Below are positions 3,001 through 54,555 of a DNA stretch of 64,000 nucleotides, one piece after another (the stretch's first letter is position 1; every line of letters begins with the position of its first letter). Source of the stretch: Balanoglossus misakiensis (lineage: Eukaryota > Animalia > Hemichordata); the NCBI GenBank assembly GCA_040954595.2, contig JBECUI020000027.1:372001-436000 (forward strand), written 5' to 3'. The position numbers and the translations under genes were made by a program. Below the pieces are notes generated by a model. That model searched no databases, was not told the origin of the DNA, and saw nothing but the letters and a program-made list of their open reading frames with translations.

Positions 3001-5153
3001 TTGGGATCCTCTCCCCAAGAGGTAACGGCGGTATGAGATCCTTTAAATTCAACAGAGGACAGGGCAGCGTTATCGGCAAAGACGCTGGCATTGATACGCA
3101 TGATGCTGGCGGGAATCACCAGGCTTACAAGACCTTTGCTGGCAAAAACGCTGTCTCCGATTACGCCTACGGTGTGGATACGGCCGCTGCTCCGAGTAAC
3201 ACTCTCGGGAATACTTAGGTCGGTATCACTTCCTGCATACGCTGTAATTGTCGTTTCTGAACCCACAAGTTCTTCTGGAATGCCGGAAATAGGAGTGTAG
3301 CGTTGCTCTGCAGAACCGAAATCATAGGTATAGTCGCCTATGGTTTCAGAGAGACCAGCAATATATTCATAGAGCCCCGGTAAGGCATTCCCGTTGTCGA
3401 CTTTCTTAAAATGGTCTTCCAACAAGGTTCCCTTAAATATCCCATTGGGATCCTCTCCCCACGAAGTAACGGCGGTATGAGATCCTTGAAATTCAACAGA
3501 GGACAGGGCAGCGTTATCGGCAAAGGCCGCATAGCCAATGCTCGTTATGCTCCCAGGGAGCTGCACAAACGTAAGACCTTTGCCCAAAAAGGCGTTGGAA
3601 CCGATGGTGCTTACGCCGTAGCGGCTTCCTGATCCACTGACGACACTCTCAGGGATGCTTAGAATGGTCTCACTACCGAGATACTCCGCAATGCTTGCCT
3701 CTGTTCCTCCCTGTTCCTCAGGAATTCCGGAGGCAGAAGTATAACGGTGTATGGTGCCCAGATTATACCTATAATCACCTATCGTTTCAGAGACACCTTC
3801 AATGGTTTCGTATAGTCCTTGGAGAACTTTACCATTGTCCACTTTCTTAACATGTCCTTCTAACAAAGTCCCTCGAAAGATTCCGTTGGGACTCTCTCCC
3901 CATGCCGTAACAGCGGTATGAGCTCCTTTAAATTCAACAGAGGACAGGGCAGCATTATCGGCAAAGGCTGCATCGCCAATACTCGTTATACTCCCAGGAA
4001 GCTGCACAAGCGTAAGACCTCTACCAGAAAAGGCGTTGGGGCCGATGGAGCCTACTGTGTAGCGGTTTCCTGATTCACTGACAATACTCTCAGGGATGCT
4101 TAGAATGGCCTCACTACCGAGATACTCCGCAATGCTTGCTTCTGTTCCTCCCTGTTCCTCAGGAATTCCAGAAGCGGGAATATAGCGATGTATGGTGCCC
4201 AGATTATACCTATAATCACCTATCGTTTCAGAGACAGCTTCAATGGTTTCGTATAGTCCTTGGAGAACCTTGCCATTGTCCACTTTCTTAACATGTCCTT
4301 CTAACAAAGTTCCCCAAAATATCCCTTCAGGACTTCCTCCCCAGGCATTCACCAGAGCACTGGAACCTTTAAATTCAACAGAGGACAGGGCAGCATTATC
4401 AGCAAAGGCTGCATCGCCTATGCCCCTTATACCCGCAGGGAGCTGCACAAGCGTAAGATTTTTGCTGGCAAAGGCATGGGGACCGACGGCGCTTACTGTG
4501 TAGCTCCGTCCTGCTCCACTGACAACAGTCTCAGGGATGCTTAGAGCGGTTTCACTACCGAGATACTCCGCAATGCTTGCTTCTGTTCCGCCCTGTTCCT
4601 CAGGGATTCCAGAGGCGGGAATATAGCGTTGTATGGTGCCGAAGTTATAGCTATAGTCCTCTATGGTTTCCCTTAGCCCAGAAATATACTCATAAAGACC
4701 TTGACGCACTGTGCCATGCTCTACTTTCTTGAAATGTCCTTCCAGCAAAGTCCCCTGCAATATCCCTTCAGGACTTCCCCCCCAGACATTCACCGAAGCA
4801 CTGGAACCTTTAAACTCAATAGAAGACAGGGCGGGGTTAGCAGCAAAAGCTGCGTCGCCAATGTTCGTTATACTCGCAGGAAGCTCCAAATGAGTAAGAC
4901 CTTTGTTAAAAAATGCGTTCTCACTAATGCCAGTAATAGTTTTACCACTAGTCGTTCTTGACAGAATAATGAGCACAGAATCACTGCCAGTGTAATTAAC
5001 AAGTTGGACGCCTTCATTGTTGTTAGAATCTTCTTGATATATGAAATTTCCTTCATTGAATTCTGTGACCCCCACAGGATTCATACAAGAAATTATTGTT
5101 ATGGATAGTGCTGACACCAGTATTAGGCTTAACAACAAGCTGATCTTTTGCAT
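1..5153 (-). CDS. Giant BspA-type leucine-rich-repeat (LRR_5) surface lipoprotein with ~9 tandem ~147-aa modules; runs off the window start
   Basis: Not in the ORF track because it has no stop in the window. ATG at 5153 follows AAGGAG and reads MQKISLLLSLILVSALSITIISC (lipobox), then motifs such as LELPASITNIGDAAFA and LVIPASITRIDDGAFA. The frame at position 59 (DLSIGSKAFSNNLISNITI) matches the start frame. DNA repeats recur with a 441-447 bp period. Confidence 0.9.
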   Translation of the reverse strand, partial: MQKISLLLSLILVSALSITIISCMNPVGVTEFNEGNFIYQEDSNNNEGVQLVNYTGSDSVLIILSRTTSGKTITGISENAFFNKGLTHLELPASITNIGDAAFAANPALSSIEFKGSSASVNVWGGSPEGILQGTLLEGHFKKVEHGTVRQGLYEYISGLRETIEDYSYNFGTIQRYIPASGIPEEQGGTEASIAEYLGSETALSIPETVVSGAGRSYTVSAVGPHAFASKNLTLVQLPAGIRGIGDAAFADNAALSSVEFKGSSALVNAWGGSPEGIFWGTLLEGHVKKVDNGKVLQGLYETIEAVSETIGDYRYNLGTIHRYIPASGIPEEQGGTEASIAEYLGSEAILSIPESIVSESGNRYTVGSIGPNAFSGRGLTLVQLPGSITSIGDAAFADNAALSSVEFKGAHTAVTAWGESPNGIFRGTLLEGHVKKVDNGKVLQGLYETIEGVSETIGDYRYNLGTIHRYTSASGIPEEQGGTEASIAEYLGSETILSIPESVVSGSGSRYGVSTIGSNAFLGKGLTFVQLPGSITSIGYAAFADNAALSSVEFQGSHTAVTSWGEDPNGIFKGTLLEDHFKKVDNGNALPGLYEYIAGLSETIGDYTYDFGSAEQRYTPISGIPEELVGSETTITAYAGSDTDLSIPESVTRSSGRIHTVGVIGDSVFASKGLVSLVIPASIMRINASVFADNAALSSVEFKGSHTAVTSWGEDPNGIFKGTLLEDHFKKVDNGNALPGLYEYFAGFSETIGDYTYDFGSAEQRYTPISGIPEELVGSETTITAYAGSDTDLRISESVTRSSGRIHTVSVIGDSVFASKGLVSLVIPASITRIDDGAFANNALLTSVRFEGANAAITAWGANPNGIFKGTLLENHFKKVNSANVLPGLYEYIPGISETIGDYTYAFGSVRQRYTPNSGSPEEQGGNSETIVTAYTGSDIDLTIPTSVTRSNSQIHNVDVIGNSVFANKGLVSLVIPASITRIDDGAFAHNALLASVRFEGANAAITAWGANPNGIFKGTLLEEHFKKVDNANALPGLYEYIAGISETIGDYTYDFGSAEQRYTPLSGTPEELVGSRTTITAYIGSDTDLSIPDSVTRRTGRTHTIAVIGNSAFANKGLVSLVVPASISLIANKAFAYNPNLASVKFEGGSTVISQWFYGVFEGTKLHLHFRSTVQNNRAARAGLYQLVPQETHTIDDFTYVFHSFQRYVPINGNEELNKTWISRNIIDYTGNATDITIPESIPPMNNRSYPILYIASHAFSNKNLTSVVLPSSLRSISSNAFSQNPLLGSVEFKGHEAWIDIWGTASSNNGVFNGTLLEGHFTDFDGPGLGYRAVPKGLYETIPGRSLTQGDFVYSLGALQRYTPPPHVGVPQEKGSASEATISQYIGTSQDITIPERVTLGNTYSISTIEPLAFANKNLRSVVLPATVALIEDRAFSDNSELISVEFMSSNTALKANVFENSDFAEPVYKGSDGSLVNLTNATIEEGLYSSFRFGAWTEGTQNTVEVSAYNRIAEITDLIIPASVVKGGIGYEVTSIAAEAFNNQNLNSVVLPPTITNIGSKAFSYNYIKRVDLSGNTVLETIGSEAFRVNYIESIALPASVTTIGHNAFKANDLISIMIPDSVSSIGERAFYYNDIETTDFSRATNLRSIGPEAFSSNDLVIVDLSANTNLKSIGAEAFKKNSITSVNLPPGSTDLSIGSKAFSNNLISNITI
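1150..4900 (-). repeat. Intragenic tandem repeats of ~441-447 bp (about 9 units)
   Basis: GTLLEGH-like motif near 1190, 1650, 2081, 2527, 2971, 3415, 3860, 4300 and 4740; near-identical pairs such as 2690-3060 versus 3134-3504. Confidence 0.85.
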
Positions 5154-5475: not shown

Positions 5476-5528
5476 GTGGGTAAGCTTTGTAGGAAACTAT
5501 TTTTAAAAAGGCATGGAAGAAAATATGA

Positions 5529-5604
5529 ACTCACTCACTCACTCACTCACTCACTCACTCACTCACTCACTCACTCACTCACTCACTCACTCACTCACTC
5601 ACTC
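5529..5604 (+). repeat. (ACTC)19 simple sequence repeat, orphan
   Basis: Follows ATG GAA GAA AAT ATG AAC; downstream there is only a short signal-peptide-like relic (HLRTQSKSSFFLCFSPLLTIF). Confidence 0.95.
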
Positions 5605-6135
5605 ACGCGCATCTAAGAACTCAAAGCAAATCTAGCTTTTTTCTCTGCTTTTCCCCCTTACTAACAATTTTTTCTTACTCCAATTCCGGCATTGCTTTGG
5701 GCAGACTGCAAATTGCTAAGCCACAAAGACCTCAGGCATTCCTGTGCGGGTTCATTCAGAAATGAAATTGACAAACCTCCCCATCTTCCAGGGCCTCGCC
5801 TGGACATTCCCCCCTGTCAGCCACGCTCTCCTAATGAAAAACGCCATCAGCGTGACATTGTGCAGAACTGTGGACGGGGCAGATTCACAGGGTAATCTTA
5901 TTAGAGCTACGTGGAGCGTGAGGACTTATGAGCAGCTTCCCGGCATGAGTCAGTTCGGGTCCTGCCTTGGAAATCGTATGAACGATAAGAAGAATCTGCT
6001 TTTGGGACTCTCAGTTAATCCCCCAGCAAGGTTGGAGGAAGGCCGGAGATCAAGGGCAATTTCAGATTTAAGAAAGAACAGGCCCTAAGAATAGCCAGAG
6101 TTAAAAAAATGATTTTTAAATTAAGGAGATATGCA

Positions 6136-7313
6136 ATGTTTTCCATCAGACAATTTGTAACTTTTTATTTTCATTTCCAGGACAATAAGAAACAAAGAAG
6201 CAGAACCAGATACAGAGGTATTTATAAGCACCTGGCTCTTTGTTTTCTGCTTCTTCCACCCCTTCTGAGCGGGTGCCAGACAGATCCCCTTAGTAGCGAG
6301 GCCCTTATACTCCAAGTCAACAGCGATAACGAGGAACTCTTAGAAAAAGACCTTCCAAACAAAACTTTTACGATTACCTACTACTCTGGAGAAACCGCTA
6401 CAGAGGTAATACTGTCTTTCCAGTTATCTCCCAAGGCTTCTTTATTGGTGGATGGGCAAATTGTTGAGGATATAACCATGTGGCCATACCCCTGGATCTG
6501 AACACACCTAACACACAGAAAACTATTACTCTAAGGGTCAGGGCCCAAGACGGAACTATGAACGACGAGTACAGTGTTATTGTACATTACCTCTCCTTTT
6601 TCACATTTCTTACAGGAGATGAAGAGTCCCACACCCAGGCAGGTTCCCATATCCTGGCAGGTTATGCTGAATTAAACGCACCGGTTGCCAATGCAACAAT
6701 CTATGCCGTGGCCTTGCCCACCTCTGCTACGCCCCCCGACAATATGGCCGCATTGAAAGCCACCTCTCCTACCTGGCAGACCTACAGCCTAGAGAGAAAC
6801 AAAGCACAATGGATAGTTTTTTTAAACCTTAGTTCTGAAACGCAATACCATATCTACCTAGGGATAGAATATGACGGCGGAGTGTATTATGACAAAAGCC
6901 CCATTTCTATAACTACCCTTGCGCCGCCGAATAGCATATGGCGAATAGGATACGACGGTCTTATTCCTCCTAGCGCTGGAAAAGGGCGGACGATTAAGGC
7001 CTATCTTGGCCAAACCATTATTCTTCCAGGAGCTGTGGCGGATGACAGTCACAATTCACTTACAGAATGGGTGTATTCTCCGTCCTCAGATCGAATATCC
7101 TTATCAGTCGGTTACAGCATTTACACGAATACTCGGTTTGGTAATCGGGCCGAGATAATAGGAGATGAAGCAGCGTTTCCTGCAAACAGCCACAGGTATC
7201 TGTGCTTGTCTTTACCTGAACTGGAAACAGGAGATGAAGGCACTTGGCGAGTAGTAAGTATTTTGGCAACACCCCAAAATATTAATTTTGATTTGGTGAT
7301 TTTGGATAACTAG
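6136..7313 (+). CDS. Lipoprotein, divergent paralog of the array family with no ACTC tract; split by one frameshift near 6470-6480
   Basis: AAGGAG-ATG(6136) and lipobox LLSGC. ORFs 6109-6501 and 6480-7313 join. Motifs match the array family: VRAQDG~VTAEDG, NATIYAV~NATVDFYAV, KAYLGQTIILP~QAYEGQRIILP, FDLVILDN~IDLRIIER. Confidence 0.75.
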
Positions 7314-7521: not shown

Positions 7522-8439
7522 ATGAGATATTTATTATCTTCATGTATTTTCTTAACCTTGGTTTTCGGTTCCTGTACCAGCTTCCCCGTTAAACCTACCC
7601 CGGGGGAGCAGGTGGATGTGTTCATCCCTTCGGGAGATTCCTACCTGGTCGGCACTATCACCTATCCAGAGGACCTTTCCACACCAGTGCCGGCAGTGCT
7701 TCTCCTCCCGGGCTTCACCGGAGAGCGAGATGAACTTCCTGTAACAAATACTTTTTCCTCTCAGGAAGGAGGGGCCCCTTTGGGTATGTGGGAGATGACT
7801 GCCTTGGCCTTGGCCCAGGAAGGATTCGCTTCTCTACGGATCGACTACCGCAACAGCGGTAAATCCCCAGGTAAGTGGGAGGACATCACCGTCACCGAAG
7901 AGCTGGAAGATGCCTTGGCTTCACTGAAGTGGCTCTCCAAAAACCCAGCCCTTGATAAGAACCGACTTGCCGTTTGCGGTTTGTCCCAGGGAGGTACTCT
8001 GGCATCCCTGATGAGTACCAATCCCTTGGTTCACACAGTGGTCCTCTGGTCCGCTGCTTCTGATTTCTCCTGGCTTCCCCTCGCCATTCCCCAAGAGACG
8101 ATCTCTAGGATCCAATCCGAGGGAATCCTCTCCTTCAGCCTTCCTTGGGGGGAAGAAATAACAATGAAGAAGGCCTACTTTGATTCCGTGGAGGGTCTGG
8201 ATCCTCTGGCTAACATCGCCCAGTTTTCTGGCCCCCTACTCTCCCTGGCGGGAACCCAAGATACCCTGGTGGCACCCCAGCCGGAAGTGGCCCAGCGGTT
8301 CCTTGAGGCCCACTCCGAAGGTCCTGAATCTCTGGTAGTCCTTGAGGCGGATCATACCTTTAATAATTTCACTGGCCCCGATGGAATGGAGCAGGCCATA
8401 CGCGTTACCCTGGAATGGCTTAACCAGCATCTGAAATAG
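7522..8439 (+). CDS. Alpha/beta hydrolase fold lipoprotein (serine esterase/peptidase-like)
   Basis: Lipobox FGSC, LLPGFTG, GLSQGG nucleophile elbow, GTQDTLV, EADH triad residues; AAGGAAGG RBS. Confidence 0.88.
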   Translation: MRYLLSSCIFLTLVFGSCTSFPVKPTPGEQVDVFIPSGDSYLVGTITYPEDLSTPVPAVLLLPGFTGERDELPVTNTFSSQEGGAPLGMWEMTALALAQEGFASLRIDYRNSGKSPGKWEDITVTEELEDALASLKWLSKNPALDKNRLAVCGLSQGGTLASLMSTNPLVHTVVLWSAASDFSWLPLAIPQETISRIQSEGILSFSLPWGEEITMKKAYFDSVEGLDPLANIAQFSGPLLSLAGTQDTLVAPQPEVAQRFLEAHSEGPESLVVLEADHTFNNFTGPDGMEQAIRVTLEWLNQHLK

Positions 8440-8856: not shown

Positions 8857-10049
8857 ATGATTAGCAATTTAAGGAAACTCACTCACTCACTCACTCACTC
8901 ACTCACTCACTCACTCACTCACTCACTCACTCACCAACTCTTGCGCGTTAGGACTTCAAAGAAAGCCTAATTCCCTTCGCCGTTTTTCCCCGTTAAAAGC
9001 AATACTTTTCTGTTTAATCCCAGCACTTTTCCTGACAAGCTGCGGCCCCACCGGTCCAAGTCGAGAAACCCTCATAACAACTTTGACCATCAACGGCCTG
9101 GAGGGAGCGGCAACAGTTGATGAAACCAAAGCCGTTTTTTCTTTTGATAAACTCGATCCCAGTATGATAAGCACCTTTGACCTCAGAGTATCCCCCGGGG
9201 CCCACGGTTACCCATGCCGACGGTACCGCTCTGACAGCTGAGAATCTTGTTCTTGGCGAGGAGTTCCCCGTGCTCGTTACCGCAGAGGATGGACTTACTA
9301 CCCAAACCTACACCCTATTAATTACCGGAGATATTTTCATTACCAACAAATACAGCAACGGCTACTATGTCTGGTTTGACCTAACCTTACATCAAAACGC
9401 TACGGTGGATTTCTACGCTGTAGAAGAAGGAACAACCCTGCCCAGCGCCGTTTCCGTGGCGGCCATGACTGACACCGATGGCGACCAAGCCGTCGACGGT
9501 CAACACTTCAGAGATGACTTGGTTGCCGGGGAACCCCACCGGATTGTTCTCTACAACCTGGACACTTCCAAAAACTACGATATTGGCAGCTATTTCAGTG
9601 ATGCTAAGTATCCCGGCTCTCACGCCGCTGTATTGACACAGATGACTACAGCCGCAGAACCCAGCACCACGGGCAAGGTGGTTTGGCAGGCTTACGAAGG
9701 GCAGCGAATCATTCTGCCGCCTGCAAGGTTGTTGTCAAATAACGATATACCTGCTGGAACAACCGAAACTCAGTCTCTTGCCACACGAAAAACTACAGCA
9801 GAGGGAGAGGAAGTCATCTACAGAAGTATATATGTACTCACTCCAAATTCATATTTCAATGGCGCTGATCACAAGCTAGCTATTCATCAGACTATAGAGG
9901 TTATTATTGATTCTATGGGACATTATTTCATAAATTTTACAGATGTTATGAAATCACAAGAAGGCATATATTGGTTTCGATGGACGTCAGAAGACCAGGG
10001 TACCGATTCCCCCGATGACTATATTGATTTACGCATCATAGAAAGGTAG
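8857..10049 (+). CDS. Phase-variable lipoprotein, array unit 1 ((ACTC)14 at 8877-8932, OFF; extra +1 C near 9201)
   Basis: AAGGAGG-ATG ATT AGC AAT TTA AGG AAA, then the tract, then TNSCALGLQRKPNSLRRFSPLKAILFCLIPALFLTSC lipobox in a shifted frame. GGGGCCCACGG here versus GGGGCCACGG in the other copies. Confidence 0.85.
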
Positions 10050-10495
10050 TCTTTGTCTCAGCAGGGGATGTGCCGTTCTCATGCTGGGACGGCTGCCAAG
10101 AATGCCATGGAGAAAAGAAAGACTCCCGTTGGGGCCAAAATGATGACTTTTCAGTAACTTCCAGGCCTAAGCAGTCCCTCGGAGACTAGAGGGAGTCAAA
10201 ACGATAAGAAGAATCTGCTTACTCCCCACCCCTGAAGGCCCTAGGGCAGGCTTTCTGGGGAGTGCCCGCTCCCAGATGCCTTAAAAACCTTAGCCAGCAC
10301 CCTAATTCCCTATGGCTACTACGCTTTTTCTCAAGTTACTGACCAAAGAACAGACCATTTCTCCCCTTACCAAACAATAAAGAGATAATACCCCCCCCTT
10401 GATAAAATCCAGATAAGGAGATAGACTGGAAAACAGATGCAAATCTAGTAAACTAAAGCCTTGTAAGAGGCTATTTTTAAGGAGGCATACCAAAG

Positions 10496-11696
10496 ATGAT
10501 TAGCAATTTAAGGAAACTCACTCACTCACTCACTCACTCACTCACTCACTCACTCACTCACTCACTCACTCACTCACTCACTCACCAACTCTTGCGCGCT
10601 AGAACCCCAAAGAAAGCCTAATTCCCTTCGCCGTTTTTCCCCGTTAAAAGCAATACTTTTCTGTCTAATCCCAGCACTTTTCCTGACAAGCTGCGGTCCC
10701 ACCGGTCCGAGCCGTGAAACCCTCATAACAACTTTGACCATCAACGGCCTGGAGGGAGCGGCAACAGTTGATGAAACCAAAGCCGTTTTTTCTTTTGATA
10801 AACTAGACTCAGGTGCGGTAAGCACCTTTGACCTCAGCGTATCCCCCGGGGCCACGGTTACCCATGCCGACGGTACCGCTCTGACAGCTGAGAATCTTGT
10901 TCTTGGCGAGGAATTCCCCGTGCTCGTTACCGCAGAGGATGGACTTACTACCCAAACCTACACCCTATTAATTACCGGAGATATTTTCATTACCAACAAA
11001 TACAGCAACGGCTACTATGTCTGGTTTGACCTAACCTTGCATCAAAATGCGACGGTGGATTTCTACGCAGTAGAAGAAGGCACTACCCTGCCCAGCGCCG
11101 CTTCCGTTGCGGCCATGACTGACACCGATGGCGACCAAGCCGTCGACGGTCAACACTTCAGAGATGACTTGGTTGCCGGGGAAGCCCACCGTATTGTTCT
11201 CTACAACCTGGACACTTCCAAAAACTACGATATTGGCAGCTATTTCAGTGATGCTAAGTATCCCGGCTCTCACGCCGCTGTATTGACACAGATGACTACA
11301 GCCGCAGAACCCAGCACCACGGGCAAGGTGGTTTGGCAGGCTTACGAAGGGCAGCGAATCATTCTGCCGCCTGCAAGGTTGATGTCAAGGAATGATATAA
11401 CTACTGGAACCAAACCTCATGCTCTTCATGTGAAAAAAACTACGGCAGAGGGGGAGGAAGTCATCAAGAAGAATTTATATTTTATATTTTCTGATTCTTA
11501 TACGATCGGCAGTGATTACAACCAAGCTATTCATCAGACTATAGAGGTTATTATTGATCCTAGGGGACATTATTTCATAAATTTTACAGATGCTATGAAA
11601 TCACAAGAAGGTATATATTGGGTTCGATGGTCGTCAGCATTGGACGATACCGATTCCCCCGATGACTATATTGATTTGCGCATCATAGAAAGGTAG
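10496..11696 (+). CDS. Phase-variable lipoprotein, array unit 2 ((ACTC)17 at 10516-10583, OFF)
   Basis: Intact frame from tract to stop; ATG is out of frame with it. Confidence 0.9.
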
Positions 11697-12159
11697 TCTT
11701 TGTCTCGGCAGGGAATGTGCCGTTCTCATGCTGGGACGGCTGCCAAGAATGCCATGGAGAAAGAAATGCCATGAAGAAAGAAAAGAAAGGCTCCCCTTGG
11801 GGCCCAAATGATGACTTTCCAGCAACTTCTAGGCCTAAGCAGTCCCTCGGGGACTAGAGGGAGTAAAAACGATAAGAAGAATCTGCTTACTGGTACCCCA
11901 AAAGCCCTAGAATAGGCTTTCGGGGTGTGCCCGCTCCCAGATGCCCGGGAAACCCTAGCCAGCACCCTAATTCCCTATGGCTACTACGCTTTTTCTCAAG
12001 TTACTGACCAAAGAACAGACCATTTCTCCCCTTACCAAACAATAAAGAGATAACACCCCCCCTTGATAAAATCCAGATAGCGAGATAGACTGAAGCTTAA
12101 GTTCAAATCTAGTAAACTAAAGCCTTGTAAGAGGCTATTTTTAAGGAGGCATACCAAAG

Positions 12160-13342
12160 ATGATTAGCAATTTAAGGAAACAAACTCACTCACTCACTCA
12201 CTCACTCACTCACTCACTCACTCACTCACTCACTCCCCAGCTCTTGCGCGCTAGAACTCCAAAGAAAGCCTAATTCCCTTCGCCGTTTTTCCCCGTTAAA
12301 AGCAATACTTTTCTGTATAATCCCAGCGCTGTTCCTGACAGGCTGCGGCAGCCCCACTCCGAGCAGTGAAGCCCTCATAACAACTTTGACCATCAACGGC
12401 CTGGAGGGAGCGGCAACAGTTGATGAAACCAAAGCCGTTTTTTCTTTTGATAAACTCGACTCCGGTGCGGTGACCGCCTTTGACCTCAGCGTATCCCCCG
12501 GGGCCACGGTGACCCATGCCGACGGTACCGCTCTGACAGCTGAGAATCTTGTTCTTGGCGAGGAATTTCCCGTGCTCGTTACCGCAGAAGATGGGCTTAC
12601 TACCCAAACCTACACCCTGTTAATTACTGGAGATATTTTCATTACCAACAAATACAGCAACGGCTACTATGTCTGGTTTGACCTAACCTTGCATCAAAAC
12701 GCTACGGTGGATTTCTACGCAGTAGAAGAAGGCACTACCCTGCCCAGCGCCGCTTCCGTGACGGCCATGGATGACACCGATGGCGACCAAGCCGTCGACG
12801 GTCAACACTTCCGAGATGCTTTGGTTGCCGGGGAACCCCACCGGATTGTTCTCTACAACCTGGACACCTCCAAAAACTACGATATTGGCAGCTATTTCAA
12901 CGATGGTAAGTATCCCGGCTCTCACGCCGCTGTATTGACACAAATGACTACAGCCGCAGAACCCAGCACCACGGGCAAGGTGGTTTGGCAGGCTTACGAA
13001 GGGCAGCGAATCATTCTGCCGCCTGCAAGGTTATTGTCAAATAACGATCTATCTGGACAAGATACGCACGTACTTTCCGTACGGAGAACTGTGGCAGGAG
13101 TGGAGGAGAACCTTTATGCTGTATATGAATTCATTCCAGGTACCTATCAAGCAGGCTCTGATTTCACCCGTTACGGCACAGCTGCTCAGACTATAGAGAT
13201 TATTATTGATCCTCTGGGATATTATTTCATGAATTTTACAGATGCTATGAAATCACAAGAAGGCATATATTGGGTTCAAAGGTCAGTGGGAGGTACCGAT
13301 TCCCCCGATGACTATATTGATTTGCGCATCATAGAAAGGTAG
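12160..13342 (+). CDS. Phase-variable lipoprotein, array unit 3 (ACAA+(ACTC)13 at 12184-12235, OFF)
   Basis: Lipobox FLTGC; intact downstream frame; ATG offset 76 nt, not a multiple of 3. Confidence 0.9.
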
Positions 13343-13789
13343 TCTTTGTCTCAGCAGGGGATGTGCCGTTCTCATGCTGGGACGGCTGCCAAGGATGCCA
13401 TAAAGAGAGAAAAAAAGGCTCCCCTTGGGACCCTCATGATGACTTGACAGTAACTTCCCAGGCTTAATCAGTCCCTCGGAGACTAGAGGGAGTAAAAACG
13501 ATAAGAAGAATCTGCTTACTGGTACCCCCAAAGCCCTAGGATAGGCTTTCGGGGTGTGCCCTCTCCCAGATGCCTTGAAAACCTTAGCCAGCACCCTAAT
13601 TCCCTATGGCTACTACGCTTTTCTCAAGTTATTGACCAAGAAAAGATCATTTCACCCCCTTACCAAACAATAAAGAGATAACACACACCCCCTTGATAAA
13701 ATCCAGATAGCGAGATAGACTGAAAGTTAAGTTCAAATCTAGTAAACTAAAGCCTTGTAAGAGGCTATTTTTAAGGAGGCATACCAAAG

Positions 13790-14973
13790 ATGATTAGCAA
13801 TTTAAGCAAACTCACTCACTCACTCACTCACTCACTCACTCACTCACTCACTCACTCACCAACTCTTGCGCGCTAGAACTCCACAGAAAGCCTAATTCCC
13901 TTCGCCGTTTTTCCCCGTTAAAAGCAATACTTTTCTGTCTAATCCCAGCACTTTTCCTGACAAGCTGCGGCCCCACCGGTCCAAGTCGAGAAACCCTCAT
14001 AACAACTTTGACCATCAACGGCCTGGAGGGAGCGGCAACAGTTGATGAAACCAAAGCCGTTTTTTCTTTTGATAAACTCGATCCCAGTATGATAAGCACC
14101 TTTGACCTCAGAGTATCCCCCGGGGCCACGGTTACCCATGCCGACGGTACCGCTCTGACGGCTGAAAATCTTCTTATCGGCGAGGAATTCCCCGTGCTCG
14201 TTACCGCAGAGGATGGACTTACTACCCAAACCTACACCCTGTTAATTACTGGGGATATGCTCATTACCAACAAATACAGCAACGGCTACTATGTCTGGTT
14301 TGACCTAACCTTGCATCAAAACGCTACGGTGGATTTCTACGCAGTAGAAGAAGGAACGACCCTACCCAGCGCCGCTTCCGTAGCGGCCATGGATGACACC
14401 GATGGCGACCAGCCCGCCGACGGTCGGCACTTCAGAGATGCCTTGATTGCCGGGGAACCCCACCGTATTGTTCTCTACAACCTGGACACTTCCAAAAACT
14501 ACGATATTGGCAGCTATTTCAGTGATGCTAAGTATCCCGGCTCTCACGCCGCTGTATTGACACAGATGACTACAGCCGCAGAACCCAGCACCACGGGTAA
14601 GGTGGTTTGGCAGGCTTATGAAGGGCAGCGAATCATTCTGCCGCCTGCAAGGTTGTTGTCAAATAATGATCTATCTGCTGGAACATCCGAAACTCAGTCT
14701 CTTGCCACACGAAAAACTACAGCAGAGGGAGAGGAAGTCATCTACAGAAGTATATATGTACTCACTCCAAATTCATATTTCAATGGCGCTGATCACGAGC
14801 TAGCTATTCATCAGACTATAGAGGTTATTATTGATTCTATGGGACATTATTTCATAAATTTTACAGATGTTATGAAATCACAAGAAGGCATATATTGGTT
14901 TCGATGGACGCCAGTCCTTCTCGGTACCTTGTCCCCCGATGACTATATTGATTTGCGCATCATAGAAAGGTAG
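13790..14973 (+). CDS. Phase-variable lipoprotein, array unit 4 ((ACTC)12 at 13810-13857, OFF)
   Basis: Intact downstream frame; ATG offset 68 nt. Confidence 0.9.
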
Positions 14974-15419
14974 TCTTTGTCTCGGCAGGGGATGTGCCGT
15001 TCTCATGCTGGGACGGCTGCCAAGAATGCCATGGAGAAAGAAAAAAAAGGCTCCCCTTGGGGCCCAAATGATGACTTGACAGTAACTTTCCAGGCTTAAT
15101 CAGTCCCTCGGGGGCTAGAGGGAGTAAAAACGATAAGAAGAATCTGCTTACTGGTATCCCCAAAGCCCTAGGACAGGCTCTCGGGGTGTGCCCGCTCCCA
15201 GATGCCCGGGAAACCCTAGCCAGAACCCTAATTCCCTATGGCTACTACGCTTTTTCTCAAGTTATTGACCAAAGAACAGACCATTTCTCCCCTTACCAAA
15301 CAATAAAGAGATAACACCCCCCCTTGATAAAATCCAGATAAGGAGATAAACTGAAAGTTAAGTTCAAATCTAGTAAACTAAAGCCTTGTAAGAGGCTATT
15401 TTTAAGGAGGCATACAAAG

Positions 15420-16612
15420 ATGATCAGCAATTTAAGGAAACTCACTCACTCACTCACTCACTCACTCACTCACTCACTCACTCACTCACTCACTCACTCA
15501 CCAACTCTTGCGCGCTAGAACTCCAAAGAAAGCCTAATTCCCTTCGCCGTTTTTCCCCGTTAAAAGCAATACTTTTCTGTATAATCCCAGCGCTGTTCCT
15601 GACAGGCTGCGGCAGCCCCACTCCGAGCAGTGAAGCCCTCATAACAACCTTGACCATCAACGGCCTGGAGGGAGTGGCAACAATTGAGGGAACCAAAGCC
15701 GTTTTTTCTTTTGATAAACTAGACTCAGGTGCGGTGACCGCCTTTGACCTCAGCGTATCCCCCGGGGCCACGGTGACCCATGCCGACGGTACCGCTCTGA
15801 CGGCTGAAAATCTTCTTATCGGCGAGGAATTCCCCGTGCTCGTTACCGCAGAGGATGGACTTACTACCCAAACCTACACCTTATTGATTACCGGGGATAT
15901 TTTCATTACCAACAAATACAGCAACGGCTACTACGTCTGGTTTGACCTAACCTTGCATCAAAATGCTACGGTGGATTTCTACGCAGTAGAAGAAGGCACT
16001 ACCCTACCCAGCGCTGCTTCCGTAGCGGCCATGGATGACACCGATGGCGACCAAGCCGTTGACGGTCAACACTTCAGAGATGACTTGGTTGCCGGGGAAT
16101 CCCACCGTATTGTTCTTTATAACTTGGACACCTCCAAAAACTACGATATTGGCGGCTATTTCAGTGATGGTAAGTATCCCGGCTCTCACGCCGCTGTATT
16201 GACACAGATGACTACAGCCGCAGAACCCAGCACCACGGGTAAGGTGGTTTGGCAGGCTTACGAAGGGCAGCGAATCATTCTGCCGCCTGCAAGGTTGTTG
16301 TCAAATAATGATCTTGCTGGAACATCCCTCTCTCATTCTCTTAATGTGCAAAAAACTACGGCAGAGGGGGAGGTAGTCATCTATGGCAGTATATTTATAT
16401 TCATTCCAGGTACTTATCAAATTGGCTCTGATTACGACTCAGCTGTTTATCAGACTGTAGAGATTATTATTGATTCTAGGGGACATTATTTCATAAATTT
16501 TACAGATGTTATGAAATCGCTAGAAGGTATATATTGGGTTCGATGGACGGCAGACGCTCGGGATACCGATTCCCCCGATGACTATATTGATTTGCGCATA
16601 ATAGAAAGGTAG
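15420..16612 (+). CDS. Phase-variable lipoprotein, array unit 5 ((ACTC)15 at 15440-15499, OFF)
   Basis: Intact downstream frame; ATG offset 80 nt. Confidence 0.9.
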
Positions 16613-17060
16613 TCTTTGTCTCGGCAGGGGATGTGCCGTTCTCATGCTGGGACGGCTGCCAAGAATGCCATGGAGAAAGAAAAGAAAGGCTCCCGTTGGG
16701 GCCAAAATGATGACTTTTCAGTAACTTCCAGGCCTAAGCAGTCCCTCGGAGACTAGAGGGAGTAAAAACGATAAGAAGAATCTGCTTACTGGTACCCCGA
16801 AAGCCCTAGAATAGGCTTTCGGGGTGTGCCCGCTCCCAGATGCCTGGAAAACCCTAGCCAGCACCCTAATTCCCTATGGCTACTACGCTTTTTCTCAAGT
16901 TATTGACCAAGAAAAGATCATTTCACCCCCTTACCAAACAATAAAGAGATAATACCCCCCCCCTTGATAAAATCCAGATAGCGAGATAGACTAAAGCTTA
17001 AGTTCAAATCTAGTAAACTAAAGCCTTGTAAGAGGCTATTTTTAAGGAGGCATGCCAAAG

Positions 17061-18240
17061 ATGATTAGCAATTTAAGGAAACAAACTCACTCACTCACTC
17101 ACTCACTCACTCACTCACTCACTCACCAGCTCTTGCGCGCTAGAACCCCAAAGAAAGCCTAATTCCCTTCGCCGTTTTTCCCCGTTAAAAGCAATACTTT
17201 TCTGTCTAATCCCAGCACTTTTCCTGACAAGCTGCGGTCCCACCGGTCCGAGCCGTGAAACCCTCATAACAACTTTGACCATCAACGGCCTGGAGGGAGC
17301 GGCAACAGTTGATGAAACCAAAGCCGTTTTTTCTTTTGATAAACTAGACTCAGGAGCGGTAAGCACCTTTGACCTCAGCGTATCCCCCGGGGCCACGGTT
17401 ACCCATGCCGACGGTACCGCTCTGACAGCTGAGAATCTTGTTCTTGGCGAGGAATTTCCCGTGCTCGTTACCGCAGAAGATGGGCTTACTACCCAAACCT
17501 ACACCCTATTAATTACCGGGGATATGCTCATTACCAACAAATACAGCAACGGCTACTATGTCTGGTTTGACCTAACCTTGCATCAAAACGCTACGGTGGA
17601 TTTCTACGCAGTAGAAGAAGGAACGACCCTGCCCAGCGCCGCTTCCGTGACGGCCATGGATGACACCGATGGCGACCAAGCCGTCGACGGTCAACACTTC
17701 AGAGATGACTTGATTGCCGGGGAACCCCACCGTATTGTTCTCTACAACCTGGACACTTCCAAAAACTACGATATTGGCAGCTATTTCAGTGATGCTAAGT
17801 ATCCTGACTCTCACGCCGCTGTATTGACACAGATGACTACAGCCGCAGAACCCAGCACCACGGGCAAGGTGGTTTGGCAGGCTTACGAAGGGCAGCGAAT
17901 CATTCTGCCGCCTGCAAGGTTGTTGTCAAATAACGATATACCTGTTGGAACAACCGAATCTCATTCTCTTCATGTGCAAAAAACTACGGCAGAGGGGGAG
18001 GTAGTCATCTATGGCAGTATATTTATATTCATTCCAGGTACTTATCTATTCGGCACTGATTACGACCCAGCTGTTTATCAGACTGTAGAGATTATTATTG
18101 ATTCTAGGGGACATTATTTCATAAATTTTACAGATGTTATGAAATCACTAGAAGGTATATATTGGGTTCGATGGACGCATACATATCAGGATACCGATTC
18201 CCCCGATGACTATATTGATTTGCGCATCATAGAAAGGTAG
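17061..18240 (+). CDS. Phase-variable lipoprotein, array unit 6 (ACAA+(ACTC)10 at 17085-17124, OFF)
   Basis: Intact downstream frame; ATG offset 64 nt. Confidence 0.9.
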
Positions 18241-18688: not shown

Positions 18689-19876
18689 ATGATTAGCAAT
18701 TTAAGGAAACTCACTCACTCACTCACTCACTCACTCACTCACTCACTCACTCACTCACTCACTCACTCACCAGCTCTTGCGCGTTAGGACTTCAAAGAAA
18801 GCCTAATTCCCTTCGCCGTTTTTCCCCGTTAAAAGCAATACTTTTCTGTTTAATCCCAGCACTTTTCCTGACAAGCTGCGGCCCCACCGGTCCAAGTCGA
18901 GAAACCCTCATAACAACTTTGACCATCAACGGCCTGGAGGGAGCGGCAACAGTTGATGAAACCAAAGCCGTTTTTTCTTTTGATAAACTAGACTCAGGTG
19001 CGGTGACCGCCTTTGACCTCAGCGTATCCCCCGGGCCACGGTGACCCATGCCGATGGTACCGCTCTGACGGCTGAAAATCTTCTTATCGGCGAGGAGTTC
19101 CCCGTGCTCGTTACCGACAGAGGATGGACTTACTACCCAAACCTACACCCTATTAATTACCGGAGATATTTTCATTACCAACAAATACAGCAACGGCTAC
19201 TATGTCTGGTTTGACCTAACCTTGCATCAAAATGCGACGGTGGATTTCTACGCAGTAGAAGAAGGCACTACCCTACCCAGCGCCGCTTCCGTTGCGGCCA
19301 TGGATGACACCGATGGCGACCAGGCCGTTGACGGTCGGCACTTCAGAGATGCCTTGATTGCTGGGGAACCCCACCGGATTGTTCTCTACAACCTGGGACA
19401 CTTCCAAAAACTACGATATTGGCAGCTATTTCAGTGATGCTAAGTATCCCGGCTCTCACGCCGCTGTATTGACACAGATGACTACAGCCGCAGAACCCAG
19501 CACCACGGGCAAGGTGGTTTGGTCGGCTTACGAAGGGCAGCGAATTATTTTGCCGCCTGCAAGGTTGTTGTCAAATAACGATATACCTGCTGGAACAATC
19601 GAATCTCATACTCTTCGTTCGCAAAAAACTACTGGCAGAGGGGGAGGTAGGCAACTATTCCTTATTTTTTCTAATTCCAGGTACTTATCAATTCGGCGGT
19701 GCTTACGACCCAGCTGTTGATCATACTATAGAGATTATTATTGCTCCTCTGGGATATTATTTCATAATTTTAAGGATGTTATGAAATCACAAGAAGGCAT
19801 ATATTGGGTTCGAATGACGGAGGGAGGTACCGATTCCCCCGATGACTATATTGATTTGCGCATCATAGAAAGGTAA
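18689..19876 (+). pseudogene. Array unit 7 ((ACTC)15 at 18709-18768, OFF) with several extra 1-nt indels (pseudogene or sequencing error)
   Basis: Homologous throughout but broken near 19035, 19117, 19397, 19633 and further on; fragments appear as ORFs 19222-19437 and 19358-19720. Confidence 0.8.
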
Positions 19877-20310: not shown

Positions 20311-21430
20311 ATGTTCAGCAATTTAAGGAAACTCACTCACTCACCAGCCTTGCGCGCTAGAACTCCAAAGAAAGCCTAATTCCCTTCGCCGTTTTTCCCC
20401 GTTAAAAGCAATACTTTTCTGTCTAATCCCAGCACTTTTCCTGACAGGCTGCGGCAGCCCCACTCCGAGCCGTGAAGCCCTCATAACAACTTTGACCATC
20501 AACGGCCTGGAGGGAGCGGCAACAGTTGATGAAACCAAAGCCGTTTTTTCTTTTGATAAACTAGACTCAGGTGCGGTGACCGCCTTTGACCTCAGCGTAT
20601 CCCCCGGGGCCACGGTGACCCATGCCGACGGTACCGCTCTGACGGCTAAAAATCTTCTTATTGGCGAGGAATTCCCGTGCTCGTTACTGCAGAGGATGGA
20701 CTTACTACCCAAACCTACACCCTGTTGATTACCGGGGATATTCTGATTACCAACAAATACAGCAACGGCTACTATGTCTGGTTTGACCTAACCTTGCATC
20801 AAAATGCTACGGTGGATTTCTACGCTGTAGAGGAAGGAACGACCCTGTCCAGCGCCGCTTCCGTTGCGGCCATGGATGACGCCGATGGCGACCAGGCCGT
20901 TGACGGACAACACTTCAGAGATGCCTTGATTGCTGGGGAACCCCACCGTATTGTTCTCTACAACCTGGACACTTCCAAAAACTACGATATTGGCAGCTAT
21001 TTCAGTGATGGTGAGTACCCTGACTCTCACGCCGCTGTATTGACACAAATGACTACAGCGCAGAACCCAGCACTACGGGCAAGGTGGTTTGGTCGGCTTA
21101 CGAAGGTCAAAAAATAATTTTCCCTCCTATAAGGTTGTTGTCGAGAGGAAATAGGAATAGGTTGTTTTTCTCAAGAATTGAGGGACAGAACCATCTTCCC
21201 ATTTATATAGTGGTAGACGACAAGGGTACCTGGGGCTGGGGCGGTGCGTATATTGCCGATATTCATAGTACGATGAGCGTTTTTTATGATTCTAGGGACT
21301 ACATCTCCATAAAAATTGAAGGTGTTGCAAAGTCACTGGAACTTCCTATTACCTAAGCACACAGACAGACGAATCCCATGCCCCTTCTGATGATGATAGC
21401 TTTATTGATTTGCAAGTGCTAGAACGGTAG
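20311..21430 (+). pseudogene. Array unit 8 ((ACTC)3 only) with multiple frameshifts and a divergent C-terminal domain
   Basis: Fragments 20492-20728, 20677-21117 and 21084-21356; ends FIDLQVLER-stop at 21430. Confidence 0.8.
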
Positions 21431-21653: not shown

Positions 21654-21941
21654 TTCTTTATTTGTCAGATCAGATTTTATTGTCGCTAAGGTAGAGTGGA
21701 AAAGGATTTTTATCTTCTTTTCCTTTTTTAAGCTATGATTTCTCCTTTTACAACCCTGCTCCTGGGAATGCTTTGTCTTGTGAAAAATATGGAGGGAGGG
21801 GGGAGAGATGTATTTCTTTGTGTGATAGAGGGTTATGAAAAAAGCCATCGGGGGAGGGGAGCTTAGGTGTTTTTGATCATATTATTCGATACATTCACAA
21901 TGTGGGGGTAGAATGGTATAAGTCAATAATCAGGAGTGTGT

Positions 21942-22313
21942 ATGTTACGAAAAAATGGATTGTTTCTTTTGGTGATTGCCTTGGCTTTTTCTACTGTGGC
22001 CTGTGAACTTTTTCAAGATAGCATTGGCGAGGGTACGTATTTTGTTGGTGTTTGGCAAGTCAACTCCGGTGATTTAGGCACTTTTACCTTTCTAGCCGAT
22101 GGTACATGGACCCGTGTAGGCGCTAGTGGTGGTCATGAGAATGGAACTTTCAGTGCAACAGGTAATGCCTCCAGCGGTGTCCTTCTATTGAAGTCAGAAT
22201 TATTCTCCTTCATTGCAGGTGAGCATGAGTATGTGTTTAACCCTGAAGGTACAGAGGTTGAGATCACTTGGGAGGCTTCCTTCATCGGGAAATCGGTTCT
22301 GGTTAAGCAATAA
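21942..22313 (+). CDS. Small lipoprotein, tandem copy 1 (lipocalin-like beta-barrel suspected)
   Basis: AGGAG-ATG, lipobox TVAC, motif FVGVW...FTFLADGTWTR. Confidence 0.85.
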   Translation: MLRKNGLFLLVIALAFSTVACELFQDSIGEGTYFVGVWQVNSGDLGTFTFLADGTWTRVGASGGHENGTFSATGNASSGVLLLKSELFSFIAGEHEYVFNPEGTEVEITWEASFIGKSVLVKQ

Positions 22314-22679
22314 TCCAGGAAATTTATCCGACTGAGATATCACAGACCCTAGCAGCCCGACCCCGGCAAAGCTAGGGGAACGCCTAATTCTTTATTTTTT
22401 AGGTCAGATTTTATTATAGCTAAGGTAGAAAGGAAAAGGATTTTCATCTTCTTTTCCTTTCTACCCTTAGCTATGATTTCTCCTCTTAAAACCCTGCTCC
22501 TGGGAATGCTTTATCTTGTGAAAAGCATGGATGGCTTCGGGGAAGTTAGAGTTATATTTTTTTCACAGTATAGGGTTACATGAAAAAATCATTGAGGGAG
22601 GGAGGCTTTAAGGTTTTTTAAATGGATAAATTTATGAGTAGGGGGTAGAATAGTATAAAGCAAATCATAAGGAGTGTGT

Positions 22680-23064
22680 ATGTTACGAAAAAATGGATTG
22701 TTTCTTTTGGTGATTGCCTTGGCTTTTTCTACAGCGGCTTGTGAACTTTTTCAAGATAGCATTGGCGAAGGTACGTATTTTGTTGGTGTTTGGCCAAGAC
22801 AACACAGGTGGGGAAGGCAAGTTTACCTTTCGATCCGATGGTACATGGACCCGTGTAGGCGATATTTCGGGTAATTACGATGGAACTTTCAGTGCAAGAG
22901 GTAATGCCACCAGCGGTGTCCTCGTATTGAAGTCAGATGAAATCTCCTTATTTCCAGGTGAGCATGAGTATGTGTTTAATACTGATGGTACAGAGGTTGA
23001 GATCACTTGGGAAAACTACATACTGGGAGATCTGGAGGGGAAATCGGTTCTGGTCAAGCAATAA
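22680..23064 (+). pseudogene. Small lipoprotein, copy 2, single +1 frameshift near 22795
   Basis: ORFs 22674-22874 and 22714-23064 join at GTTTGGCCAAGAC (extra C); may be a sequencing error. Confidence 0.75.
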
Positions 23065-23222
23065 TCCAGGAAATTGATCCGACCTGAGATAGCATAGACC
23101 CTAGCAACTCGCCCCCCGGCAAGGCCGGGGGGAACGCTCAATTCTTTATTTCCCAGGTCAGTTTTTATTATAGCTAGGGTAAAGTGGAAAAGGATAATAT
23201 AAGCAAATAATAAGGAGTGTGT

Positions 23223-23606
23223 ATGTTGCGGAAAAATGGATTATTCCTTTTTATAGTTGTCTTCGCTTTTTCTATAACGGCTTGTGGACTATTTCAAGAT
23301 AGTATCGGCGCAAGTACGTATTTTGTTGGTGTTTGGGAAGATCCCTTTGGTGGGGAAGGCACGTTTACCTTTCGAGCCGATGGTACATGGACCCGTGTAA
23401 GTGATGTGTGGGGTAATCTCAATGGAACTTTCAGTGCAACGGGTGATGCCTCCAAGGGTATCCTTGTGTTGGAGTCATCATTCCCCTCCCTTTTTACAGG
23501 TGTGCATGAGTATGAGTTCGAACCTGGAGGTAGAGTAGTTGGAATCTCTTGGAATACTATATTACTGGGATTGTTGGGGGTATCGATTCTGGTCCTCAAT
23601 TACTAG
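23223..23606 (+). CDS. Small lipoprotein, copy 3
   Basis: Lipobox ITAC; paralog of copy 1. Confidence 0.85.
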   Translation: MLRKNGLFLFIVVFAFSITACGLFQDSIGASTYFVGVWEDPFGGEGTFTFRADGTWTRVSDVWGNLNGTFSATGDASKGILVLESSFPSLFTGVHEYEFEPGGRVVGISWNTILLGLLGVSILVLNY

Positions 23607-23765
23607 TCCAGGAAATTTATCCGACTGAGATAGCACAAACCCTAGTAACTCCCCCCCCCCGGCCTTGCCGGGGGGAACGCTCAATTCTTTATTTCCAAGG
23701 TCAGTTTTTATTATAGCTAGGGTAAAGTGGAAAAGGATAATATAAGCAAATAATAAGGAGTGTGT

Positions 23766-24149
23766 ATGTTGCGGAAAAATGGATTATTCCTTTTTATAGT
23801 TGTCTTCGCTTTTTCTATAACGGCTTGTGGACTATTTCAAGATAGTATCGGCGCAAGTACGTATTTTGCTGGTGTTTGGGAAGATCCCTATGGTGGGGAA
23901 GGCACGTTTACCTTTCGAGCCGATGGTACATGGACCCGTGTAAGTGATGTGTTGGGTAATCTCAATGGAACTTTCAGTACAACGGGTGATGCCTCCAAGG
24001 GTATCCTTGAGTTGGAGTCATCATTCCCCTCCCTTTTTACAGGTGTGCATGAGTATAAGTTCGAACCTGGAGGTAGAGTAGTTCTAATCTCTTGGAATAC
24101 TATATTACTGGGATTTTTGGGGGGGAAATCGGTTCTGGTCAAGCAATAA
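23766..24149 (+). CDS. Small lipoprotein, copy 4
   Basis: Nearly identical to copy 3 (543 bp period). Confidence 0.85.
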   Translation: MLRKNGLFLFIVVFAFSITACGLFQDSIGASTYFAGVWEDPYGGEGTFTFRADGTWTRVSDVLGNLNGTFSTTGDASKGILELESSFPSLFTGVHEYKFEPGGRVVLISWNTILLGFLGGKSVLVKQ

Positions 24150-24521: not shown

Positions 24522-25190
24522 ATCCTACCAGGGGAGATGCTGTTCTCATGCTGGAAGGGACCAAGAAGGCTGGGAGAGAGGAAGAAAAGGCTCCCGTTGG
24601 GGCTAAAATGATGACTTTTCAGCAACTTCCAGGCCTAAGCAGTCCCTCATGAGCTAGCGGGAGTAAAAACGATAAGAAGAATCTGCTTACTGATAACCCA
24701 AAAGCCCTAGGATAGGCTTTCGGGGTGTCCCGCTCCCAGAGATGCCCGGGAAACCTTAGCCAGCACCCTAATTCCCTATGGCTACCACGCTTTTTCTCGA
24801 ATCATTGACCAAAGAACAGACAATTTCTCCCCTTAGCAAGCAATAAAAGGTAGTCTGCATCCTACCAGGGGAGATGCTGTTCTCATGCTGGAAGGGACCA
24901 AGAAGGCTGGGAGAGAGGAAGAAAAAGCTCCCGTTGGGGCTAAAATGATGACTTTTCAGCAACTTCCAGGCCTAAGCAGTCCCTCATGAGCTAGCGGGAG
25001 TAAAAACGATAAGAAGAATCTGCTTACTGATAACCCAAAAGCCCTAGGATAGGCTTTCGGGGTGTTCCCGCTCCCAGAGATGCCCGGGAAACCTTAGCCA
25101 GCACCCTAATTCCCTATGGCTACCACGCTTTTTCTCGAATCATTGACCAAGAACAGACAATTTCTCCCCTTAGCAAGCAATAAAGAGATA
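24522..25190 (+). repeat. Direct tandem duplication (~337 bp) of the array inter-gene spacer
   Basis: ATCCTACCAGGGGAGATGCTGTTCTCATGCTGG begins at 24522 and again at 24859. Confidence 0.9.
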
Positions 25191-25295
25191 ACACCCCCCT
25201 TGATAAAATCCAGATAAGGAGATAGACTAAAAGTTAAGTTCAAATCTAGTAAACTAAAGCCTTGTAAGAGGCTATTTTTAAGGAGGCATACAAAG

Positions 25296-26463
25296 ATGAT
25301 CAGCAATTTAAGGAAACTCACTCACTCACTCACTCACTCACTCACTCACTCACTCACTCACTCACTCACTCACTCACTCACTCACCAGCTCTTGCGCGCT
25401 AGAACCCCAAAGAAAGCCTAATTCCCTTCGCCGTTTTTCCCCGTTAAAAGCAATACTTTTCTGTTTAATCCCAGCACTATTCTTGACAAGCTGCGGCCCC
25501 ACTCCGAGCAGTGAAACCCTCATAACAACTTTGACCATCAACGGCCTGGAGGGAGTGGCAACAATTGATGAAACCAAAGCCGTTTTTTATTTTGATAAAC
25601 TCGACTCCGCTACGGTAAGCACCTTTGACCTCAGCGTATCCCCCGGGGCCGCGGTGACCCATGCCGATGGTACCGCTCTGACGGCTGAAAATCTTGTTCT
25701 TGGCGAGGAGTTCCCCGTGCTCGTTACTGCAGAGGATGGGATTACTACCCAAACCTACACCCTATTAATTACCGGAGATATTGTCATTACGAATAAACAC
25801 AGCAACGGGTATTATGTCTGGTTTGATGTCATCCTGCATCAAGATGCGGTAGTGGATTTCTACGCAGTAGAAGAAGGAACGACCCTGCCCAGCGCCGCTT
25901 CCGTAGCGGCCATGGATGACACCGATGGCGACCAGGCCGTTGACGGCCATCACTTCCAGGATGCGTTGGTTGCCGGGGAAACCCACCGTATTGTTCTTTA
26001 CAATATGGATACTTCCACTAACTACGATATTGGCAGCTATTTCAGCGGTGGTAAGTATCCAAACTCTCACGCCGCTGTATTGACACAGATGACTACAGCC
26101 GCAGAACCCCGCACTACAGGTAAGGTGGTTTGGCCGGCTTACGAAGGGCAAAAAATTCTGCTTCCCCCTGCCCGGTTGAAATCAACAGATGATATCCCGG
26201 ATGGTTCAGGCCTATCTTATAATTTGGAGGGCCAAGCTTCATGGGCTTCCATTTTAGAAATTCTGGATGGTTCATATCAAATAGGTTGGAACTATGATTT
26301 TGTTCTTCATGCCATGTTTTCTATGATTTTTGATTCCACGACTTATCTATTCACCAAAATAGACGGTGTTCTCAAGGCACACACGGCTTTCTATTTTCTG
26401 AGTTTTTCAGATCAGGATATCGGTACCCCCGAGGATTACATTGATTTACAGGTACGGAACTAA
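25296..26463 (+). CDS. Phase-variable lipoprotein, array unit 9 ((ACTC)17 at 25316-25383, OFF), divergent C-terminus
   Basis: Same promoter, RBS, tract and lipobox; intact downstream frame ending DYIDLQVRN. Confidence 0.9.
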
Positions 26464-53705: not shown

Positions 53706-53707
53706 CC

Positions 53708-54518: not shown

Positions 54519-54555
54519 TGTCAATCAAATTTAATTGTATAAGGAGATCAAGCAT

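Follow-up and report, generated by a model that had tools for sequence, protein, structure and literature searches.

A tandem array of nine out-of-frame spirochaete lipoprotein genes with a variable C-terminal domain of probable immunoglobulin V-like fold

Introduction

Opa proteins are outer-membrane barrels, Vsp and VlsE are helical proteins with an expression site and silent cassettes, and Lig proteins are chains of bacterial immunoglobulin (Ig) domains that are not known to vary in the manner of complementarity-determining regions (CDRs). Domains resembling the Ig variable (V) set are found in the Siglec-like binding regions (SLBRs) of the streptococcal adhesins GspB, Hsa, and SrpA, for which the cited passages describe a cysteine-free V-set-like domain with three loops that set ligand choice (PMC9117288). 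In GspB a loop takes the place of strands C' and C'', and the passage cited notes no sequence likeness to animal Ig (PMC3131266). In the passages on SLBRs and on the streptococcal IgI3 domain, bacterial V-like adhesin domains are described without C' and C'', and their variation is from strain to strain. Here, an array of nine tandem lipoprotein genes (units U1–U9) is described from a stretch of 64,000 nucleotides, in the following termed the window (contig JBECUI020000027.1, positions 372,001 to 436,000 of the forward strand, in the Balanoglossus misakiensis assembly GCA_040954595.2).

With moderate confidence, we interpret the array as a repertoire of phase-variable lipoproteins for recognition at the cell surface (adhesin type), in each of which a constant stalk is combined with a tip of predicted cysteine-free antibody-V-like fold. 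The window is DNA of an uncultured spirochaete, since a family scan found a UPF0164 gene in it and the closest relatives of its NtrC-type regulator (at most 71% identity) are named Spirochaetes, Spirochaetales, or Spirochaetaceae wherever a taxon is given; one Deltaproteobacteria label appears far down the list of relatives.

Results and Discussion

Organization of the array

The units follow each other at a spacing of approximately 1.63 kb, share a common spacer, and each have their own ribosome-binding site (Table 1). An earlier reading of the DNA, made from the letters without database searches (the sequence-only reading), had taken in six units; three more lie outside the coordinates it gave (ATGs at 18689, 20311, and 25296). 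Every unit starts with MIS/FSNL, followed by a tract of (ACTC)3–17 and a signal peptide with LFLT[SG]C at its end. The mature chain consists of a cadherin-like part (PF12733, a weak match below the cut-off with E 0.06–0.09; 0.076 in U2), a middle domain that is FN3-like by eye, and a cysteine-free C-terminal domain of 114–125 amino acids, here called the tip as opposed to the preceding stalk. The possibility that the spacer encodes a structured RNA was rejected, as there was no Rfam match and folding was not unusual (z −0.68).

Reading frame and proposed phase switching

In all nine units the (ACTC)n tract lies between the ATG and the signal peptide, and the lipobox falls into frame +1 or +2 as counted from the ATG, so that all nine genes are out of frame when read from their start. 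Nor does any of them have an alternative ATG, GTG, or TTG start before the lipobox. This out-of-frame state was absent from the sequence-only account. Units U2–U6 and U9 are open from the tract through to the stop codon, and U1, U7, and U8 carry frameshifts beyond the tract. Some of these extra frameshifts may be assembly errors or strain differences, because those at 6473 (in a distant gene of the same layout, treated below), 19765, and 20348 are absent from the contigs of run X1. The run contigs break off at the tracts. Two further lipoprotein genes carrying this tract (at 51099 and 54560) are in frame, so the tract can be read through, and it has the look of a switch used for surface lipoproteins across the genome. 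These two belong to a group of three LRR_5 + fn3 + GLUG lipoprotein genes with an (ACTC)n leader (51099–61411), the third of which (tract at 58520) is out of frame. A G/C-rich tandem repeat, seen as repetitive open reading frames (ORFs), lies between two GLUG genes (53600–54400). At 5524–5604, upstream of the distant gene just mentioned, (ACTC)19 follows an ATG that opens no long ORF, perhaps a remnant leader.

Fold of the tip

The tip is predicted to be, and probably is, a cysteine-free antibody-V-like Ig fold. A V-type fold, as proposed from sequence alone, is supported by a structural model of middling confidence and by structure and profile searches, but the B–F disulfide, the Trp of strand C, and a Pfam V-set match are all lacking. 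The model places strands at tip residues 33–40, 46–56, 59–62, 74–78, 84–88, 97–104, and 117–121, with a predicted local distance difference test score (pLDDT) of 64–75 over residues 31–110. Strands C' and C'' between C and D, followed by E, F, and G, are present in this predicted structure, and the domain aligns with V domains over its whole length. Residues 1–30 (A'/B region) show no strands in the model (pLDDT 53–56) and lie inside the aligned range of the structure match. Structural alignments to V domains had 5–14% identity, and SLAM-family chains were among the matches. The 50 structure matches listed contained no chain of the FN3, PKD, cadherin, or streptococcal SLBR type, which does not exclude them, and a search of the Atlas with the U2 tip reached 0.83 at best, with no V-set domain among its matches. 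A match to CEACAM5 was rejected because it was out of register and partly to a tag.

The sequence-only reading was right that the domain is cysteine-less, as no unit contains a Cys in it; among V domains, CD2 is an exception without the disulfide according to the cited passage (PMC12051499). At the position inferred for the strand-C Trp, U1–U7 and U9 have an invariant Leu. The D-x-G/A-x-Y motif before the F-strand anchor is present as E-G-I-Y, which aligns with heavy-chain V domain (VH) D-T-A-V-Y and sialoadhesin-like D-A-G-V-Y; U9 departs from it. Strand F carries an invariant W and a near-invariant R, and reads Y-W-[VF]-R in six of the seven units U1–U7, in register with Y-R-F-R of the sialoadhesin-like P0002 (a selected best match). 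The Arg is absent in U3 (Q), U9 (S), and the 6.1 kb gene. An Arg on strand F binds sialic acid in Siglecs, and the residue is regarded here as a lead. None of eight domains matched Pfam V-set PF07686 at E ≤ 10, and the units had no NCBIfam match.

The distant gene of the same layout, at 6.1 kb, had been considered the clearest V-set case. It does have the clearest features, including a Trp on strand C by eye, but its C-terminal domain contains one Cys and is only marginally similar in sequence: it scored 4.3 bits against a profile of the units only, a value reached by 1 of 736 reported shuffles. Because of the Cys and this marginal likeness, the gene backs the fold assignment of the units only indirectly.

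Relatives of the array were scarce. A word-indexed protein search found none, neither with full-length U2 nor among longer proteins, and the genome contigs searched contained none either, which also held for a flanking gene. Four metagenome loci match, only over the cadherin-like part, and four matches among representative proteins were repeat proteins. The similarity to animal V domains is too weak for a tree, and intermediate relatives were not found in these searches. In the literature searched (partial coverage), no description of such an array in spirochaetes was found.

Variation along the unit

Variation was compared among U1–U6, leaving out the frameshifted U7 and U8 and the divergent U9. 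The sequence blocks quoted in the sequence-only reading were all found in the window, its six variants of the third block were correct, and the length changes it mentioned occur in all three blocks. Its contrast of a near-constant stalk and a variable tip also holds, with 95% identity over the 156 stalk columns compared versus 71% in the C-terminal domain. Its picture of variable blocks between conserved frameworks does not hold between blocks 1 and 2, as identity is 98% in the equivalent of framework region (FR) 1, 51% in the CDR1-like window, 60% in FR2, 40% in the CDR2-like window, 83% in FR3, 41% in the CDR3-like window, and 100% in FR4. From the BC loop to C''D, 54 columns form a single continuous stretch at 50% identity. 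Placement of the blocks at the BC, C'-C''-D, and FG positions is supported by the middling model and the searches, but strands C and C' vary as well. On strand C the alternate positions adjoining the invariant Leu vary most; on a V domain these would form the outward GFCC'C'' face. Of 14 columns with at least four states, 12 fall into the three CDR-like windows, which cover 41 of 125 columns (Fisher p 2e-5); the test is partly circular, since the windows were set from VH-alignment anchors but drawn after the alignment had been seen. Hydrophobic inward positions are kept across units, and hardly any change is seen in the predicted ABED face, in A' and G, or anywhere in the stalk, although these are exposed too.

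Selection and exchange between copies

The ratio of nonsynonymous to synonymous differences per site (pN/pS), taken over the 15 ways of pairing the six units, was 0.18 in the stalk, 0.54 in FR1/3/4, 0.73 in FR2, and 1.36 (1.07–1.64) in the CDR-like windows. The value for the CDR-like windows is the highest of these, but it does not significantly exceed neutrality (median p 0.13). In the two closest pairs, replacements account for 21 of 23 changed loop codons versus 1 of 7 framework codons (p 3e-4; hand-counted, with two silent sites common to both pairs). Variable tip sites are spread evenly over the codon positions as 42/34/37 with equal transitions and transversions, versus 18/12/41 and 330:156 in the stalk.

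Relaxed constraint or decay might produce this pattern: an ordinary beta-sandwich with drifting loops, in which patchy gene conversion makes the blocks, would sit in a partly pseudogenised array. The pN/pS of 0.94 over the whole tip, the further frameshifts in three units, the spacers without genes, and the middling fold scores are in line with such decay. It is nevertheless unlikely, as synonymous divergence in the loops does not suffice to explain the pattern, the differences of the closest pairs consist almost only of replacements in the loops and silent changes in the frameworks, inward hydrophobic positions are retained, six units remain open from tract to stop, and some frameshifts are missing from run X1.

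The variation of the tip is segmental exchange among copies, because the groupings of units change along the repeat (120 informative sites, p 2e-4). Not every block is unique: block 2 has a DNA identity of 99% between U1 and U4 and 93% between U5 and U6. The FG loops, in contrast, are distinct in all seven of U1–U7; those of U1 and U4 differ at 11/21 nt despite the common block 2, and those of U5 and U6 at 9/11 nt although the domains are otherwise near-identical. Runs X1 and X2 (one sample of one study, possibly related to the source of the window itself) contain loop sequences not in the window, and a 261-bp stalk contig had a depth of 168 versus 7–9 for single-copy flanks, a depth that is not a copy number. 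Together these data hint at an allele pool larger than nine.

A true antibody-like system, in which a dedicated mechanism would mutate or exchange CDR cassettes inside lineages of cells and binders would be picked by selection, would explain the FG loops that differ within otherwise similar domains and the additional alleles in both runs. We regard it as very unlikely. No reverse transcriptase or recombinase was among the 39 window ORFs scanned, crossovers are scattered over the whole unit including the spacer, and the variation is not like that of diversity-generating retroelements, because 32 of 113 variable columns contain no A in any of the six units and indels occur. The description of the array as an antibody-like binder library is fair as an analogy of shape, but no dedicated diversifier was seen, the nine genes are inherited, and the C and C' strands vary too.

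Proposed function

Under the interpretation favored here, each gene would normally be off, and slippage in the tract would switch single genes on in part of the population. A single V-like tip would then be displayed on the constant stalk, which would keep it away from the membrane, and the GFCC'C'' face with its BC, C'C'', and FG loops would contact a host or environmental ligand (glycan or protein). The tips would differ in what they bind, each copy owing its own specificity to duplication, gene conversion, and selection rather than to a dedicated enzyme.

Rapid change at an exposed tip would also fit escape from recognition by a host or phages. The tip might vary to evade host antibodies, lectins, predators, or phages, while a constant surface keeps a conserved function (or none) and most copies stay silent. 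That none of the units is in frame agrees with this, as does the spread of variability along one unbroken, exposed stretch that takes in strands C and C'; the invariant W and near-invariant R of strand F might form a constant binding site with variable residues around it, and the same logic is described for opa in the cited passages (10.64898/2026.02.02.703239). However, no vertebrate host is known, and the near-invariance of the exposed ABED face, A', G, and stalk fits one selected binding surface better than general camouflage. Binding specificity is favored over pure escape, which we consider possible but clearly less probable, because the changes keep to a single predicted face and both the sheet opposite and the stalk are constant. 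Both may be at work.

The tip could also bind its own kind in the manner of SLAM or CEACAM proteins, with phase variation providing an identity code for self/non-self recognition between spirochaete cells. The predicted variable face is the one that CEACAMs use for homophilic binding according to the cited passages (PMC8013792), and the SLAM-family structural matches point in the same direction, but there is no positive evidence of such binding and matching partners would be rare with most copies off, making this quite unlikely.

A bolder version of the recognition hypothesis, which we put forward only tentatively, is that a bacterium independently built, or took from animals, a nine-strand antibody-type V domain as a single-domain binder repertoire, with CDR1/2/3-like loops shuffled between the tandem genes by recombination, switching by slippage, and a distinct host ligand for each tip. 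Equally tentatively, the array would then correspond, in a prokaryote, to a nanobody repertoire that is displayed clonally. If true, a bacterial domain with C' and C'', a VH echo over C''–F, and diversity at CDR sites within one genome would mean that the antibody use of the V fold originated outside animals or was taken up there. This would bear on the origin of V domains, point to how an uncultured spirochaete recognizes its host or surroundings, and provide a disulfide-free single-domain scaffold whose tolerated positions have been mapped by nature.

Features of the window

Table 1. Features of the array and of the distant gene in the window. The start of each unit is its ATG.
Feature	Position	Strand	Remarks
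Distant gene of same layout	6109..7313	+	Split by frameshift near 6473 absent from run X1 contig; C-terminal domain 6975–7310, clearest V-set features
U1 lipoprotein gene	8857..10049	+	(ACTC)14 at 8877–8932, out of frame; further frameshift near 9200; V-like domain 9672–10046
U2	10496..11696	+	(ACTC)17 at 10516–10583, out of frame; lipobox LFLTSC; cadherin-like and FN3-like (by eye) parts; V-like domain 11322–11693
U2 CDR1-like window (BC loop and start of strand C)	11385..11423	+	Loop names inferred from model and VH alignment
U2 CDR2-like window (end of C', C'', C''D)	11481..11534	+	Model and VH alignment
U2 CDR3-like window (FG loop)	11631..11657	+	Model and VH alignment
Spacer between units	11697..12159	+	~460 bp, 87–92% identity among copies; 3' end with promoter-like site and AAGGAGG ribosome-binding site
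U3	12160..13342	+	(ACTC)13, out of frame; V-like domain 12974–13339
U4	13790..14973	+	(ACTC)12, out of frame; V-like domain 14596–14970
U5	15420..16612	+	(ACTC)15, out of frame; V-like domain 16238–16609
U6	17061..18240	+	(ACTC)10, out of frame; V-like domain 17863–18237
U7	18689..19876	+	(ACTC)15, out of frame; frameshifted again at several places, one of them absent from run X1 contig and so error or decay
U8	20311..21400	+	(ACTC)3; V-like domain divergent (~43% to U5) and frameshifted; end decayed
Partial spacer copy without gene, then spacer copy leading into U9	24575..25295	+	
U9	25296..26463	+	(ACTC)17, out of frame; divergent V-like domain 26119–26460 (38–42% to U2/U5); CC' segment shorter

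Between U8 and U9 sit four tandem small lipoprotein genes (21936–24149; ~125–129 amino acids, one frameshifted) without Pfam or NCBIfam match, whose copies differ in short patches. An alpha/beta-hydrolase lipoprotein gene (7522–8439) lies between the 6.1 kb gene and U1, with no link to the array shown. Elsewhere, the window contains a lipoprotein ORF of at least 1717 amino acids on the minus strand (3–5153), open at the window edge and made up of recurring modules that contain leucine-rich repeats of the BspA type (LRR_5, E 4e-71), a lipoprotein that has several PKD/Ig-like domains and weakly matches Lcl_C at its C-terminus (26927–28717), and a gene for an RPE65-family carotenoid oxygenase (30086–31690; E 2.6e-101), which is unexpected in a spirochaete.

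Comparison with known systems

With the surface lipoproteins of other spirochaetes (Borrelia Vsp, Vlp, and VlsE; Leptospira Lig) the array shares its presumed location on the surface and variable or Ig-like character. Like diversity-generating retroelements, it would amount to a bacterial library of variable binding proteins, but its changes are not adenine-specific, indels are among them, and the ORFs scanned in the window comprised no reverse transcriptase. The tip resembles animal V-set domains (VH and its single-domain form VHH, T-cell receptor V, Nav beta4, the SLAM family, disulfide-free V domains of CD2/CEACAM type, and the Siglec N-terminal domain) in its predicted strand order with C' and C'', in the C''-D-E-F sequence pattern including the x-E-G-x-Y motif of EF/F, and in varying at CDR-equivalent positions. 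It differs from them in having no B–F cysteines, Leu instead of the C-strand Trp, no Pfam V-set match, low identity in structural alignments, a variable FR2, no visible diversifier, and a position at the C-terminus of a bacterial lipoprotein.

Among bacterial proteins, the SLBRs are likewise cysteine-free and V-set-like, with three variable loops and an Arg on strand F. In the passages cited, however, the variable loops of GspB are CD, EF, and FG, whereas in the array EF is constant and BC and C'C'' vary; the YTRY or Phi-T-R-X motif of strand F is absent in the array, and no Unique domain follows, as the V-like domain ends the protein (PMC9117288). Moreover, SLBRs vary between strains and the units between tandem copies in one genome. 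The IgI3 domain of streptococcal beta and R28 proteins is another cysteine-free bacterial Ig domain, used as an adhesin, but as described in the passages cited it lacks C' and C'' and is not a variable array (PMC8013792). Neisseria opa, according to the parts of the source cited, has about ten copies, a frameshift switch based on a short 5' repeat, fewer in-frame copies than chance would give, and hypervariable segments exchanged by recombination and gene conversion (10.64898/2026.02.02.703239), all as in the array; its loci, however, are scattered and its repeat is a pentanucleotide, whereas a tandem lipoprotein array, a tetranucleotide repeat, and an Ig-type tip are found here. The scheme of switching and shuffling is thus already known, and it is the domain carried by it that is probably unusually antibody-like.

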